Below, in pieces: positions 2,981 through 21,368 of a stretch of DNA of 40,983 nt (position 1 is its first letter; the number at the start of each line of letters is the position of its first letter). The translations under genes and the position numbers were made by a program. The notes under the pieces were generated by a model that saw nothing but the letters and a program-made list of their open reading frames with translations, had not been told where the DNA came from and searched no databases. The stretch is from a virus. The stretch is from the IMG/VR virus record IMGVR_UViG_3300020046_003171, positions 1-40,983 of that record, one strand, 5' to 3'.

Positions 2981-3682
2981 TTAGCCCCTAAGCCAAGGTT
3001 GTTTTCTCAAATCCCTGACTGTCTTGCCGCCACCATCACTCCCTGCGTTCGCTGATGGTCTGACTGCAGTTAATGGTGATGGTGCGTCTACGTTCTGGCT
3101 TTTAGCCGTTTGATTTTGCTTGATTGACTCGGACAGCCTTTGAAGCTGTTGGCGCGCCATGTGAGGGCTACGCTCTGCCAATCCAGCAATAGTCATGAGC
3201 TTTTGTGGATTTTTACTCAATTCGTATATCACGTCTGGAGTATTGTCCAACTGAGAGGCCAAGACGACAACGTGAGGAAAAGCTTGTGGCTCAAATTCCG
3301 ATGTAACCGCCTCGAAGTCTTCGTACAGTTGTTTTCCGTTCGACATCTTCTGAAGGTAAGTATCAGTGAGTTTGTTTACCTCGTTTTCATAAGCTGCTTG
3401 CTGCTCTTGCTGTTGCTTCGCGGCCTGCTCTTGCTGGAAACGTCCGTAAACTTGCTCATAGATTTTGTCGGCATCGACGCTTTGGGTCATCCCACCTACG
3501 GATTTTTGCTGAGCTTGCATCTGAGCAAGTTCCTGTTGGAACTGTGCTTGAGCTTCTTGCTTAGCTTTTTCTGCGGCGGCGGCTTTTTCTCTCTGGACGA
3601 TTCTATTCACCTGCTCAACCGTTAGGTTTTGCGGTGTTGCCTGTGGGGGCGTTTCAATCATCGTTCCAAGTTCATCAGTCAT
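2981..3682 (-). CDS. Scaffolding protein (233 aa)
   Basis: Sits between portal and capsid. Long Gln/Ala/Glu/Lys-rich helical segments (AAAAEKAKQEAQAQFQQELAQMQAQQ) are typical of scaffolds. Confidence 0.65.
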   Translation of the reverse strand: MTDELGTMIETPPQATPQNLTVEQVNRIVQREKAAAAEKAKQEAQAQFQQELAQMQAQQKSVGGMTQSVDADKIYEQVYGRFQQEQAAKQQQEQQAAYENEVNKLTDTYLQKMSNGKQLYEDFEAVTSEFEPQAFPHVVVLASQLDNTPDVIYELSKNPQKLMTIAGLAERSPHMARQQLQRLSESIKQNQTAKSQNVDAPSPLTAVRPSANAGSDGGGKTVRDLRKQPWLRG

Positions 3683-10460: not shown

Positions 10461-10688
10461 ATGTTAATTAAATTCATCTACCGCAAACAATTTGGCCGTG
10501 AAATGCTCTATCCTGACAATGAAGCAGCCGAACACGCATGCGCTATTGCAGAACGAAAAGTATTTAAAATGGTTCGAATTAAAGACTTACTGGCTTTGGG
10601 ACATGAGGTTCAAGTGACTAACGACTCTAACGAACCCATAGATTTAAATTCTAGCTTAGCCTTGAATGATGTAAAAATTAAAGTATGA
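10461..10688 (+). CDS. Hypothetical early protein (75 aa)
   Basis: The ATG directly follows the upstream TAA. Confidence 0.5.
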   Translation: MLIKFIYRKQFGREMLYPDNEAAEHACAIAERKVFKMVRIKDLLALGHEVQVTNDSNEPIDLNSSLALNDVKIKV

Positions 10689-10819
10689 TGACCTCAAGCC
10701 AGTCTCTCGTTAATGACAAGTCAAAACCTCATGAGAGGCTGCGCTTACCGAATTGCCGCTAGTTTATTGTAAAACGCATGTGCTGCGATGTTACAGCTAA
10801 CCAACCTGGTGCATGAGAT

Positions 10820-10846
10820 GTAGGGAGCCCCTACGCGGCTTTTTAT
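10820..10846 (+). terminator. Possible intrinsic terminator after the plus early operon
   Basis: GTAGGG-AGC-CCCTAC hairpin, then GCGGC and TTTTT (10840-10844). The stem is not adjacent to the T-run, so this is uncertain. Confidence 0.35.
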
Positions 10847-10849
10847 TAC

Positions 10850-10966
10850 GGGAATCGTGGTGGAATTGGTAAACACTGTATAAATGAAATAGGTGTATTA
10901 GCCTACGCCGAAAACCGAGAAGATTTCATTTTGACACATTACAGGTTCAAGTCCTGTCGATTCCCA
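10850..10966 (+). tRNA. tRNA-like gene with canonical acceptor, D and T arms but no canonical anticodon loop (~117 nt)
   Basis: The acceptor stem GGAATCG/CGATTCC has an extra G(-1) opposite C73. Position 8 is U, and the D arm is GTG-AATTGGTAA-CAC. The T arm is ACAGG-TTCAAGT-CCTGT. The anticodon arm is replaced by an extended helix (AAATGAAAT/ATTTCATTT) capped by the hairpin GGTGTA-TTAGCC-TACGCC. Confidence 0.5.
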
Positions 10967-11053
10967 ATCTATATAGAAAATGTCGTTTCCGTGTACATGT
11001 TTTTCGGATATGTATATAAAACGTCAAAAAATCGACACATAAGGAAATTCAGA

Positions 11054-11281
11054 ATGACTGAATTTAACGCCGCGGAACTTAAAGAGCTTTGTAAGTTTGG
11101 CCGAAAAGACTTAACACCAAAGCAAATCTCTGGCATGGAAAGTATTAATAAAGCGTGTCAGGCCTTTATGGAGACCATCTATCTTTCATCCCCGCGCTCT
11201 GCAGACCAGTCCGCCGCGATTCGCTCAGCTCGGTTAGCCGCTATGCAGGCAAATGCCGCGATTGTTTGGGATTCTGAATAA
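11054..11281 (+). CDS. Hypothetical protein (75 aa)
   Basis: Start moved to ATG 11054 because an AAGGA lies 8 nt upstream. The longer ORF from 10931 would overlap the tRNA-like element. Confidence 0.55.
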   Translation: MTEFNAAELKELCKFGRKDLTPKQISGMESINKACQAFMETIYLSSPRSADQSAAIRSARLAAMQANAAIVWDSE

Positions 11282-17774: not shown

Positions 17775-18419
17775 ATGGACAAATCACCAGAAATAGACAA
17801 ATTGGCATCTGCGCTGGTCAAATTCCAGTCAGAGGTCAGGGATGCCCAAAGAACAAAGTCTTCATATAACGGAAAGTATGCGGATTTAGAGGGTATATAT
17901 TCTATTATTAGACCTCTGTTAAGTAAGCATGGCATATGCTTTAAACAAGACCTTATATCGCAAATCGCAGGAGAGGTTAAAGTCAAAACATGGCTTATTC
18001 ATACATCTGGTCAATACATGGCGAGCGAACTCACAGTATCTGTCCCAGCTGGCCAGGGAAAAACAAATTCTTTGCAACAAGTTGGGGTGGCAGCATCGTA
18101 CGCACGTCGCTACGCTATAATGGGAGCCGTTGGCATTACTCAACGTGACGAAGATGATGACGCTGACTCTCTTACAGAACAAGCGCCAAAATTTAAACAA
18201 GCAGAACAAAAGCCCAAAGAAGAAGCGCCAAAGCCCGTATTAATTAATCATGACCAAGCTTTAGTGCTTCTTGAGGTAATCGGAAAGGCTGGATATACAG
18301 AGCAAAAAATACTCCTGCATTACGGAAAAGAAAGGCTTTTAGATTTCAACCTGGCAGAATTTGAAAACTGTAAAATGATTATGGCTAAAAAAATCGCAGA
18401 AAAGGAAGAAGCTAAATGA
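17775..18419 (+). CDS. erf: ERF-family single-strand annealing protein (214 aa)
   Basis: The pattern KFQSEV..YNGKYADLEGIYSIIRPLLSKHGI..LIHTSGQ..GVAASYARRYAIMGAVGI..DEDDDA is characteristic of Erf. A strong SD GAGGAAAG lies upstream. Confidence 0.75.
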   Translation: MDKSPEIDKLASALVKFQSEVRDAQRTKSSYNGKYADLEGIYSIIRPLLSKHGICFKQDLISQIAGEVKVKTWLIHTSGQYMASELTVSVPAGQGKTNSLQQVGVAASYARRYAIMGAVGITQRDEDDDADSLTEQAPKFKQAEQKPKEEAPKPVLINHDQALVLLEVIGKAGYTEQKILLHYGKERLLDFNLAEFENCKMIMAKKIAEKEEAK

Positions 18420-19081
18420 TAATTCATAACGTAGGGCAAAGAAGTTCTGAATGGTTCAAACTGCGTTTAGGTAAGATAACAGGTAGCAATGCGCACAAGC
18501 TAACAACTAAAGCTAAATTTGAGTCATATTTCTGTGAACTATTAGCGGAAACTATTACTCGCAATATTACTGAGGGGCATATAACGGACGCTATGCAATG
18601 GGGTATCGATAACGAACCTTTCGCCGCAGAATGGTACGCCGAATATACAGGTTGGGACATAGAGGTATGCGGCTTCATTGAAGACGAAAACAATATATTT
18701 GGATGCTCTCCTGACTTGTTAGTCGGTGATGATGGAATGGCGCAAATAAAGTGCCCCAGCTCAAAGAATCATCTTGATTACATGATGAATGGGCCAGACA
18801 AAGAAATCATTTATCAAATGCAATGGGAAATGTTTGTGGCTAATCGACAACGCAACGACTTCATAAGCTACGACCCCAGATTTAAAGGTGACTTAATAGG
18901 GCACGTTCAAACCATAGAAAGAGATGAAAAAATAATTTCTATGCTGCTTGGCGCAGCTCACGAAATGCAAGGCAGAATACATATGTATTTATTCGACCAT
19001 GACATACCCGTTACTAGGTACGTTCCACCCATTCCACCACCAATTAGTGAAATGGATTTATCAAACTATTTGAGGGCTTAA
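18416..19081 (+). CDS. YqaJ/lambda-exonuclease-like PD-(D/E)xK recombination exonuclease (221 aa)
   Basis: Contains RSSEWFKLRLGKITGS, GCSPDLLV and QIKCP motifs. It is ATGA-coupled to erf. Confidence 0.8.
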   Translation: MIIHNVGQRSSEWFKLRLGKITGSNAHKLTTKAKFESYFCELLAETITRNITEGHITDAMQWGIDNEPFAAEWYAEYTGWDIEVCGFIEDENNIFGCSPDLLVGDDGMAQIKCPSSKNHLDYMMNGPDKEIIYQMQWEMFVANRQRNDFISYDPRFKGDLIGHVQTIERDEKIISMLLGAAHEMQGRIHMYLFDHDIPVTRYVPPIPPPISEMDLSNYLRA

Positions 19082-20603: not shown

Positions 20604-21368
20604 TTATGGCTTTGTTGCACCGTGATTACAATTAGAGCCATCATTATGAATTCCATTATTCCCAGACCTTCTAAAAATTAAATAACATTCCCATGAGCAA
20701 TATTTTCTAGGGATGCTCTTTGTGGATTTTACATCATTTTCACAAATTAAACATTTTGTAATTATGCCCATCTTCCTGCACGTATAACTGCAGTGCTTCG
20801 TATAAGATAACCCCTGCTGGGAAATAAAAAATGTTTTTCCACATTTAATGCAAGCCAACGTAGATTTTGCATTAGATTTGATGCTTCTATTCAATATTTG
20901 CTCAAGCTTAGTTGCCCATCGGCAATTTTCAGGATAATAGTTGTCGTCATTATTTATGCGATCTATAGACAGTGTTCTATCTTTCTTGAATCCCATATCT
21001 GCTATAAAATTCTCGAACTTATGCCATCGCTCGCAAACTTTTATTCCTCTGCCTCCGTAGGAATCATACCAAGCATTTTTTGGGTTATTGCATCTTTGGA
21101 GCATATCTCTCCATGCGCCATATTCTGAGGTTTTTGAAAGATCGTGCCTTTTTACGATCTCAAGATGGAGGCAACCGCATGATTTGCTTTTGCCGGACTT
21201 TAAATCTCCCCATGTTATGGTATTTTTATTTCCACATATACATATGCACAGGACGGTGTTTTTAAACTTTTTCCCATTTTTTCTATATCCTGGGAAATAA
21301 TCCAAAACTGTCCATCTGTTAAACTGCTTGCCTATAAATAGATTTTTGTCTAAGGTGGGATTAGTCAT
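20604..21368 (-). CDS. HNH-family/homing-endonuclease-like DNA-binding protein with C-terminal Zn-finger repeats (254 aa)
   Basis: Contains the motifs W.VL..C.C.CG..LKSGKSKSCGC, YGAWRDMLQRC, YGGRGIKVCERW and SIDRINNDDNYYPENCRWAT. These are typical of a widespread phage endonuclease-like family. The C-terminus carries two CxxC...CSxxC units. Confidence 0.55.
   Translation of the reverse strand: MTNPTLDKNLFIGKQFNRWTVLDYFPGYRKNGKKFKNTVLCICICGNKNTITWGDLKSGKSKSCGCLHLEIVKRHDLSKTSEYGAWRDMLQRCNNPKNAWYDSYGGRGIKVCERWHKFENFIADMGFKKDRTLSIDRINNDDNYYPENCRWATKLEQILNRSIKSNAKSTLACIKCGKTFFISQQGLSYTKHCSYTCRKMGIITKCLICENDVKSTKSIPRKYCSWECYLIFRRSGNNGIHNDGSNCNHGATKP

Follow-up and report, generated by a model that had tools for sequence, protein, structure and literature searches.

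What use does a phage have for a gene that folds as a transfer RNA (tRNA) and carries no anticodon? The question is raised by IMG/VR record IMGVR_UViG_3300020046_003171 (positions 1-40,983), a 40,983-nucleotide (nt) stretch of DNA that is referred to as a whole as the window. On its + strand, positions 10850-10966 hold an element in which the acceptor stem, D arm and T arm of a tRNA are present, with a 58-nt rod in place of the anticodon arm. A few RNAs are known to mimic tRNA outside translation: transfer-messenger RNA (tmRNA), YrlA, viral 3' tRNA-like structures, mascRNA and the unexplained species 1 RNA of phage T4. The window element is a + strand RNA gene under selection that combines a tRNA core without an anticodon, membership of a phage family and a cassette-like distribution. 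We consider it somewhat better than an even bet that the gene specifies a stable, non-decoding tRNA-like RNA acting off the ribosome as a two-part mimic or adaptor; a tRNA mimic is also the best of the readings offered by the first-pass annotation of this DNA. The large family and the tRNA-Leu-like character of the core, described below, go beyond that annotation.

A tRNA core with a rod in place of the anticodon arm

The first-pass annotation had described a 7-base-pair (bp) acceptor stem contiguous with a T arm, together with U8 and a D loop containing GG, and all of these lie where it placed them. GGAATCG (10851-10857) pairs with CGATTCC (10958-10964), and an outer pair, G10850-C10965, extends the stem. 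The T arm adjoins the acceptor 3' strand directly, giving a 13-bp branch of 8 + 5 uninterrupted pairs. In the D arm, whose bases include A14, A15 and G18G19, a stem of 3-4 bp closes a loop of 9-11 nt; the same 20-mer is found in phage tRNA genes. The 58 nt between position 26 and the 5-nt variable loop form an interrupted helix, a cap hairpin and a 13-nt single strand, so the sequence bears out the 11-bp interrupted helix and hairpin first drawn there. The helix joins GTATAAATGAAAT (10878-10890) to ATTTCATTTTGAC (10923-10935) through 11 pairs and a 2x2 internal loop, and its base falls at tRNA positions 27-31/39-43. The cloverleaf-plus-rod structure evaluates to -31 kcal/mol, and the fold is more stable than those of shuffled sequences (z = -2.7). 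CCA is not encoded.

Infernal with Rfam, one of the checks originally proposed, matches the tRNA model RF00005 to the element end to end except for the anticodon arm. The match covers model positions 1-71 at 37.4 bits (gathering score 29; relaxed filters), with an E-value of 1.8e-6 for a 401-nt stretch, and skips the anticodon arm alone, as a 56-nt local end; a default-filter Rfam run at gathering thresholds reported nothing on the window. A second proposed check, ARAGORN with intron models, folded no standard tRNA with an anticodon: over the whole window, by default and with introns of 0-120 nt, the program called no tRNA and no tmRNA. The claim that no 7-nt anticodon loop can be drawn also stands, as no 5-bp/7-nt anticodon hairpin (U33, three anticodon bases, R37) was found in the window insert. 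A group I intron had been discounted at the outset, correctly: the insert is too short, and the Rfam scan of the element matched no intron family. Nor does a bulge-helix-bulge intron whose excision would leave a 7-nt loop fit the element.

Searches by sequence return little. Against 103 related loci, blastn and nhmmer searches with the element returned identical copies only, and the exact 18-mer of the cap hairpin has no match in IMG/VR. INPHARED phages contain no match to the element, to 20 kb of the window or to a typical member of the family described below, and blastn left the element unmatched in E. coli genomes. The features of the element and of its surroundings are collected in Table 1.

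Table 1. Features of the tRNA-like element and its flanks, in window coordinates
Feature	Position	Strand	Basis or remark
Acceptor stem, 5' strand GGGAATCG, 8 bp	10850-10857	+	pairs with 10958-10965
Linker U8 G9 (10858-10859) and class II, tRNA-Leu-type D arm GTGG-AATTGGTAA-ACAC (10860-10876)	10858-10876	+	
Domain in place of the anticodon arm	10878-10935	+	helix enclosing cap hairpin and single strand
Cap hairpin GGTGTA-TTAGCC-TACGCC, 6 bp and 6-nt loop	10892-10909	+	
Single-stranded stretch, 13 nt	10910-10922	+	
Single-stranded motif AAAACCGAG	10911-10919	+	invariant in five variants, flanks variable
Variable loop ACATT (5 nt, U48) and T arm ACAGG-TTCAAGT-CCTGT (10941-10957)	10936-10957	+	
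Acceptor 3' strand CGATTCCC and discriminator A73 (10966)	10958-10966	+	
Promoter-like TTGAAT-16 nt-TATGAT	10662-10689	+	consensus scan, 9/12 matches
Conserved non-coding leader, 160 nt	10690-10849	+	block conservation against L195
Gene for a 75-residue Acb2/Tad1-hairpin-family protein, not part of the RNA	11054-11281	+	87 nt downstream of the element

Selection on the element in close relatives

L195 (loci and contigs other than the window carry L numbers) belongs to a syntenic phage whose aligned blocks share about 71-82% nucleotide identity with the window and which has the element at the same place. The two elements differ at 21 of 117 positions, distributed as 1 of 55 in the core and 20 of 62 in the insert and variable loop, and their stems stay paired. 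Conservation stops directly after A10966. Judged from these alignments, constraint is stronger on the core than on the flanking genes.

Five distinct close variants are available, three of them from contigs found via the upstream gene. Across the five, every pair of the acceptor, D, T and cap-hairpin stems is kept. In the cap hairpin, four of the six pairs change on one side only and remain paired, while the loop varies (TTAGCC versus GCAACA); in the T arm, A:U becomes G:U with pairing retained. Such substitutions preserve pairing only as + strand RNA, given the G:U pairs. In the long helix pairing stands at 78%; one change is a double compensatory one (G:C to A:U), and A.C and C.A appositions occur as transition intermediates. 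The rod is backed by thermodynamics and conservative substitution, not by strong covariation.

A phage family with an 8/5 branch

Related uncultured podophages contain at least 75 distinct elements of one family, to which the window element belongs. R1, a covariance model that rests solely on the window sequence, gave full-length matches in three contigs with related terminases, each with the same 8-bp terminal stem, then A, and a long insert. The 3'-end pattern they share recurs at 46 IMG/VR loci, which reduce to 42 distinct elements of 98-214 nt. A sequence-independent descriptor, namely a T arm followed by 8 contiguous pairs, picked out 32 places in 1.18 Mb and none in shuffled sequence; among them are long-insert copies with other acceptors as well as canonical tRNAs in which an eighth pair happens to form. 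A 15-base T-arm pattern added 23 members with unrelated 8-bp stems, such as GAAGGCAG/CTGCCTTC and TTGACGTG/CACGTCGA. These are the 23 true cases among 114 matches to the pattern in IMG/VR, and because most of the matches arise by chance the pattern cannot serve as an estimate of abundance. Sampling relied in part on sequence patterns, which inflates the apparent conservation of the 3' end, and the E-values of models built in this analysis are rough.

In a structure-blind alignment of 41 cores, 95% of the cells pair, and 10 of the 18 pairs show double changes, spread over the acceptor, D and T stems. None of 500 shuffles reached the covariation score of this alignment. Covariation in homologous phages, suggested early on as a way to check the element, thus exists for the core stems across the family. 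All eight acceptor positions covary family-wide, and among the close relatives of the window the seventh pair runs from C7:G through U:G to U:A. The consensus consists of an 8-bp acceptor, the linker CG, a 5-bp D stem with the D loop GACAGYGA, the insert, A48, a 5-bp T stem with the T loop UGCAAUU, and a discriminator; the commonest acceptor is GGCAATCG/CGATTGCC-A. The tertiary contact between D and T loops at 18:55 gives a covariation table of 35/6/4/3, which is suggestive and not clean.

The gene ends are also informative. The discriminator is A in 50 of 53 members; CC follows in 14 of the 53 (1.6% expected, p = 1e-13) and the complete CCA in five, while the base at -1 is U in 42. Ends of this kind look like the marks of a tRNA-type gene that would be matured by RNase P and completed by the CCA enzyme. 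Family covariation and the position of CC(A) together fix the stem at 8 bp with A as N73. The first-pass annotation had taken the outermost pair as a histidine-like G(-1):C73, an assignment that loses its support with the stem so defined: G10850-C10965 is the covarying eighth acceptor pair, and A10966 is N73.

The inserts are hypervariable yet structured, about 15-150 nt in length and located in the position of the anticodon arm; some members are short overall (85-99 nt in total). Canonical anticodon hairpins (5-bp/7-nt, U33, R37) occur four times in 53 inserts, against 3.6 expected from shuffles, and a family-wide search for a uniform closing stem or for loop remnants of a 5' or 3' intron found neither. 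In one subfamily (L106, L109, L112 and L137) blocks of the roughly 95-nt insert are conserved, and 13 pairs of the element covary, among them those of a hairpin capped by GAAA. Some phages hold two or three copies with different inserts (L008, L034, L065/L069, L135 and L286).

Several individual loci deserve description. In multi-copy phages the copies sometimes lie on opposite strands or flank a canonical tRNA-Asn. The insert of L145 (3056-3250) is itself a nested tRNA-like unit with canonical D and T arms, and this unit carries its own insert of about 54 nt at the anticodon position. L057 has a near-consensus sigma-70 promoter (TTGACA-17-TATATT, 3290-3325) that ends 7 nt before its element, a placement which suggests that the L057 element is an independently transcribed small RNA gene. 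A window-like fold of the L057 insert lies within about 1 kcal/mol of the minimum free energy and is ambiguous.

A scan of 185,579 GTDB reference genomes gave 38 pattern matches, among which two are true members, both on phage-sized contigs. With so few true members, and these on phage-like contigs, the family element is not a host gene or a relic of an att site.

The window element as a divergent family member

Membership of the window element was examined with R2, a model whose training set of 45 main-family sequences (the chimeric-core alignment A9) excluded the window, L195 and L115. Its match to the window spans precisely 10850-10966 and scores 26.9 bits, for an E-value of 7.5e-5 when 191 kb are searched and of 4e-4 when 1.07 Mb are. 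The range among clear members is 40-72 bits and the divergent L191 scores 34.1, while none of dozens of canonical tRNAs, including E. coli leuU, T4 tRNAs and those of jumbo-phage arrays, was found at E <=0.1. The window element is built on the family chassis, in which an 8-bp stem is directly continued by a 5-bp T stem, a linker of 2 nt leads into a D arm, and a single base serves as discriminator. Its acceptor, GGGAATCG/CGATTCCC-A, equals the commonest family acceptor at seven of eight pairs, and its 58-nt insert is inside the family range. Intermediates between the window type and the main family are found in L139, one L065 copy, L193, L130 and L034. The phage lineage is also shared: family copies, one to three per locus, are present at 14 of 80 TerL-related loci. 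On these sequence comparisons the element is filed as part of a divergent subgroup with L195, L356-L361 and L115.

A core of tRNA-Leu type

The core of the window element is, by sequence, clearly derived from tRNA-Leu. Its D arm differs from that of E. coli leuU, the tRNA-Leu(GAG), by one loop base (UGGUGGAAUUGGUA(G/A)ACAC), and within the T arm, AC(G/A)GG-UUCAAGU-CC(C/U)GU, the loop is identical; A73 and U48 are common to both. The bases of the tertiary contacts are present as U8, A14, A15:U48, G18G19, U54 U55 C56 and A58. The differences from leuU are equally plain: the window acceptor has 8 bp instead of 7, the variable region is 5 nt instead of a long arm, the anticodon stem-loop is missing, CCA is not encoded and ARAGORN rejects the gene.

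Bacterial leucyl-tRNA synthetase (LeuRS) recognises A73 and the tertiary core independently of the anticodon (PMC2377443), and removing the anticodon stem-loop in full lowers tRNA affinity for the enzyme only 2.5-fold (PMC2377443). The identity set is complete in the window element, comprising A73 and the contacts U8-A14, A15-U48, G18-U55 and G19-C56. Since LeuRS does not need the anticodon arm, it is a plausible partner for this Leu-type core. The motif AAAACCGAG in the single strand of the rod may be a relic of the anticodon loop of tRNA-Leu GAG, or else a contact site; at the equivalent site L057 has AACUGAGAUG (CUGAGAU) and L063 has CACUGAGGU (CUGAGGU).

Jumbo-phage tRNA arrays contain further genes that ARAGORN does not call: L228 4831-4946; L234 4134-4263, 5528-5648 and 9479-9621; and L238 1850-1973 and 2339-2481. 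Three of these (L228 4831-4946, L234 4134-4263 and L238 1850-1973) have tRNA-Leu-type D arms, 7-bp acceptors and inserts of about 57-75 nt at the anticodon position, and L234 4134-4263 could be interpreted as a class II tRNA that has a UCA loop and a 5' insert. Judging from these arrays, insert-bearing or anticodon-less tRNAs may be more widespread.

Leader, cassette and genome context

The window, which is of metagenomic origin, is a podophage-like genome of about 41 kb with a P22-type portal, an Sf6-type small terminase and a large terminase (TerL). An ERF and YqaJ-like recombination pair is located at 17775-19081 (+) and an HNH endonuclease gene at 20604-21368 (-). The intergenic region that holds the element is identical in two Logan contigs. 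Upstream, both promoter-like hexamers are invariant in L195, and the spacer between them differs. A hairpin in the leader, GTAGGGAGCCCCTAC (10820-10834), is likewise invariant in L195; it is followed by a T-rich run and occurs once within the window. The leader is nearly identical in L362-L365. The last base before the window RNA is C, where most relatives have U. Based on its sequence, the promoter-like element probably starts a transcript that carries the leader and the tRNA-like RNA, and the leader itself may be a second small RNA or a regulatory leader.

The element comes and goes as a unit. The near-identical L362-L364 (L362 1711-1900 aligned with window 10845-10985) keep the leader and the downstream flank and are without a cassette of about 135 nt, made up of TTAC, then the element, then 14 nt more (ATCTATATAGAAAA). 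Hence the tRNA-like gene is accessory, a unit that a phage either has or lacks.

In the same slot, L365 (1080-1271) has two other tRNA-like genes in tandem. The first is about 98 nt long with a 7-bp acceptor (GAAACAG/CTGTTTC), and the second, of 89 nt, runs GGGAATGA...TCATTCCC-A and is called by ARAGORN as 'tRNA-???' with a 4-base anticodon. Just downstream of the window element, the flank at 10980-10992, ATGTCG(T/A)TTCCG, resembles the 3' end of the element, CTGTCGATTCCC, and is kept in relatives that have no element; an older cassette may have left it behind, or it may be a site of recombination.

Neighbouring genes and counter-defence context

The 75-residue protein encoded downstream of the element scores 24.9 bits against PF24729, below the cut-off of 27. 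When it is aligned with 11 homologues, 11 of the 12 sequences match the Acb2/Tad1 family, with a best E-value of 7.9e-14. The family assignment makes the protein a likely sponge for CBASS or Thoeris signalling nucleotides; searches of PDB sequences with the Acb2-like protein gave no match. Acb2-like homologues also occur inside tRNA clusters in other phages (L092, L094 and L096).

A Tad2-like gene (PF11195, 40.6 bits) lies 0.2-1.3 kb downstream of the RNA, on the same strand, at 6 of 42 family loci (L120, L149, L126, L113, L130 and L111), and at a seventh, L114, it lies 2.4 kb upstream. Apart from this, the element lies with replication genes (AAA_24, DUF669) on one side and terminase genes on the other, in a slot that relatives use for tRNAs, and at several loci canonical tRNAs adjoin it on the same strand. 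Among 29 window proteins scanned, which leave out most small open reading frames, there is no TROVE/Ro60, reverse transcriptase or RNA ligase; apart from the Acb2/Tad1-like gene, those next to the element encode small proteins without an assigned function.

Proposed mechanism

In the reading that we favour, a non-decoding adaptor or mimic, the leader and the tRNA-like RNA would be co-transcribed from the promoter-like sequence. RNase P would cut at 10849/10850, and trimming of the 3' side to A10966 followed by CCA addition would leave an 8-bp stem with an ACCA end. The L-shaped core would then engage factors that read the elbow and acceptor end of tRNAs, while the 13-bp acceptor-T helix and the missing anticodon would keep the RNA off the ribosome. 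The conserved core would be a common handle and the variable rod a lineage-specific module, with host takeover or counter-defence as the most likely role.

Several observations weigh against this picture. Between the putative promoter and the RNA lies a terminator-like hairpin with its T-run, and the maturation steps are all ones that we infer. The window element lacks three near-invariant features of the family, the D loop GACAGYGA, the T loop UGCAAUU and C8, and has in their place AAUUGGUAA, UUCAAGU and U8, which are of tRNA-Leu type; because of these missing loops and the low R2 score it is best regarded as a divergent branch or a hybrid. Covariation in the rod is not significant in shuffle tests on the five close variants, some of which have A.C or C.A mismatches at the helix centre. 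The Acb2-like neighbour is confined to the window lineage and absent in L195, and a survey of the neighbourhoods of family loci shows no universal or conserved protein partner. A decoy would compete with the entire cellular tRNA pool, and with its 8-bp acceptor the RNA may be a poor substrate for LeuRS.

A bolder version, which we offer tentatively and think unlikely to hold in full, treats the family as modular anticodon-less tRNAs: an 8/5 chassis, matured and perhaps aminoacylated by host enzymes, would be fused to swappable modules that act as effectors of counter-defence or host takeover, for example as decoys or sponges for tRNA-directed immune enzymes or small immune signals, and would be traded as cassettes of about 135 nt beside protein sponges (Acb2/Tad1, Tad2).

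Alternative explanations

The main competitor of the adaptor reading assigns the work to the insert. Here the core would be a chassis for processing and stability, providing RNase P and CCA maturation and protection from exonucleases, and the insert would regulate as a small RNA or, much as an aptamer does, bind a molecule of the host or of a defence system. We rate this as possible, although well short of probable. Inserts differ wholly between subfamilies and are conserved and covarying within them, some phages have two or three copies that differ in their inserts, AAAACCGAG is invariant in the window subfamily, and the L145 insert is a whole nested tRNA-like unit, all of which a tRNA-scaffolded cargo would explain. 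It would not explain why near-invariant D and T loops and the 8/5 geometry are kept far beyond the needs of processing, or why the core is more constrained than the insert. Some members have very short inserts, and the window insert lacks an antisense target of at least 11 nt in its own phage genome, where five 10-mers were found, at chance level.

Alternatively, the fold could be processing punctuation whose only function is to direct RNase P or RNase Z cleavage, separating or stabilising the leader RNA and the downstream mRNA. The element does lie between a conserved leader and a co-oriented gene, has U or C at -1 and tRNA-type ends, and occupies a slot in which relatives hold tRNAs. We nevertheless regard this as improbable: L195 and L356-L361 keep the element without the downstream gene, L362-L364 keep the leader without the element, and invariant loops, encoded CCA and conserved, structured inserts would all be superfluous for a cleavage signal.

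Removal of about 41 nt (10883-10923) as an intron could in principle restore a decoding tRNA. In that case the heptanucleotide just ahead of the stem's 3' strand would read UU-UCA-UU in the window and UU-UUA-UU in L195, with stop-codon anticodons; the base of the rod falls at positions 27-31/39-43; and ARAGORN likewise passes over insert-bearing tRNA-Leu-like genes in jumbo-phage arrays. We consider this very unlikely for several reasons. Firstly, ARAGORN with introns is negative, position 37 is U, and an insertion at position 31/32 of this size matches no known bacterial intron type. Secondly, the change in the 'anticodon' is the compensatory partner of a change in the 5' strand. Finally, the family has neither an anticodon-loop signal nor a uniform closing stem, the geometry is 8/5, and the scanned proteins include no splicing ligase or endonuclease.

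Least probable of all is a decaying tRNA-Leu pseudogene (decay had also been raised in the first-pass annotation) or a DNA-level site such as an att site or origin, without RNA function: the core does derive from tRNA-Leu, some close relatives dispense with the element and a sequence like its 3' end recurs just downstream, but decay or a DNA site does not fit 1 change in 55 core positions against about 71-82% identity in the aligned genome blocks and hence a constraint above that of the flanking genes, G:U-preserving substitutions that make sense only for + strand RNA, a large family with covarying stems, encoded CCA and inserts conserved within subfamilies, or the finding of just two true members, both on phage-sized contigs, in 185,579 reference genomes.

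Comparison with known tRNA-like RNAs

The nearest precedent in kind for the window element is species 1 RNA of T4 (rnaC). It too is phage-encoded within a same-strand tRNA cluster, has an acceptor-like terminal stem with a canonical T arm and carries a long structured insert without an anticodon, and its function is not known. It differs in its 7-bp acceptor with two U.U mismatches, in having no clear D arm and in the host and type of phage. At the T4 locus (tRNAs, rnaC/rnaD) R2 finds no match and R1 a partial one of 21.9 bits.

YrlA offers the best analogy for an adaptor, as a modular non-coding RNA with a tRNA-like module of D, T and acceptor parts and a second module. In YrlA the RNA ends form the Ro-binding stem at the side equivalent to the anticodon, the 'acceptor' is a closed stem-loop, and the gene adjoins Ro60/rsr (PMC4201824); YrlA is found in some phages and is recognised by tRNA enzymes (PMC4201824). 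The window RNA has the opposite topology, as its ends form the acceptor stem and its closed end is the rod on the anticodon side. The suggestion of a YrlA or Y-RNA relative, made in the first-pass annotation, is not supported, given this reversal and the lack of a TROVE/Ro60 match among the 29 proteins scanned.

The 8/5 branch sets the family apart from canonical tRNAs, which have 7 + 5 (12 bp). Allo-tRNAs keep 12 bp (8/4 or 9/3) and decode, and unusual 8/4 tRNAs occur in phages (PMC5389517). Bacterial selenocysteine tRNA shares the 8/5, 13-bp branch, but it decodes and has an anticodon arm with UCA, its 6-bp D stem closes a loop of 4 nt, its variable arm is long and its discriminator is G73; the window element has no Rfam match to it. 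In tmRNA, as here, the acceptor and T domain is assembled from the two RNA ends with a large insert between them. The window element, in contrast, has no tag reading frame, no pseudoknots and no G3:U70 (pair 3:70 is A:U or G:C), and measures about 117 nt against about 350; neither RF00023 nor ARAGORN identifies a tmRNA.

Implications for phage biology

An E-value scan of ten family loci against Rfam found no family except tRNA, and the family is not described in Rfam 15, in INPHARED-annotated phages or in the open literature searched; the 10,006 candidate RNAs that PMC10690425 leaves unnamed may include it. What is new is a large, covarying family with a defined architecture, comprising an 8/5 branch, invariant elbow loops and a swappable domain at the site of the anticodon arm. 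A large phage family of tRNA-like RNAs without anticodons, absent from the sources searched, points to a job for a tRNA look-alike outside protein synthesis. The family could also explain an undercounting of 'tRNA genes' by standard finders in the accessory regions of phages. Should the inserts turn out to be effector modules, these RNAs would be nature's own version of the engineered 'tRNA scaffold', and phage counter-defence might include a layer made of RNA.

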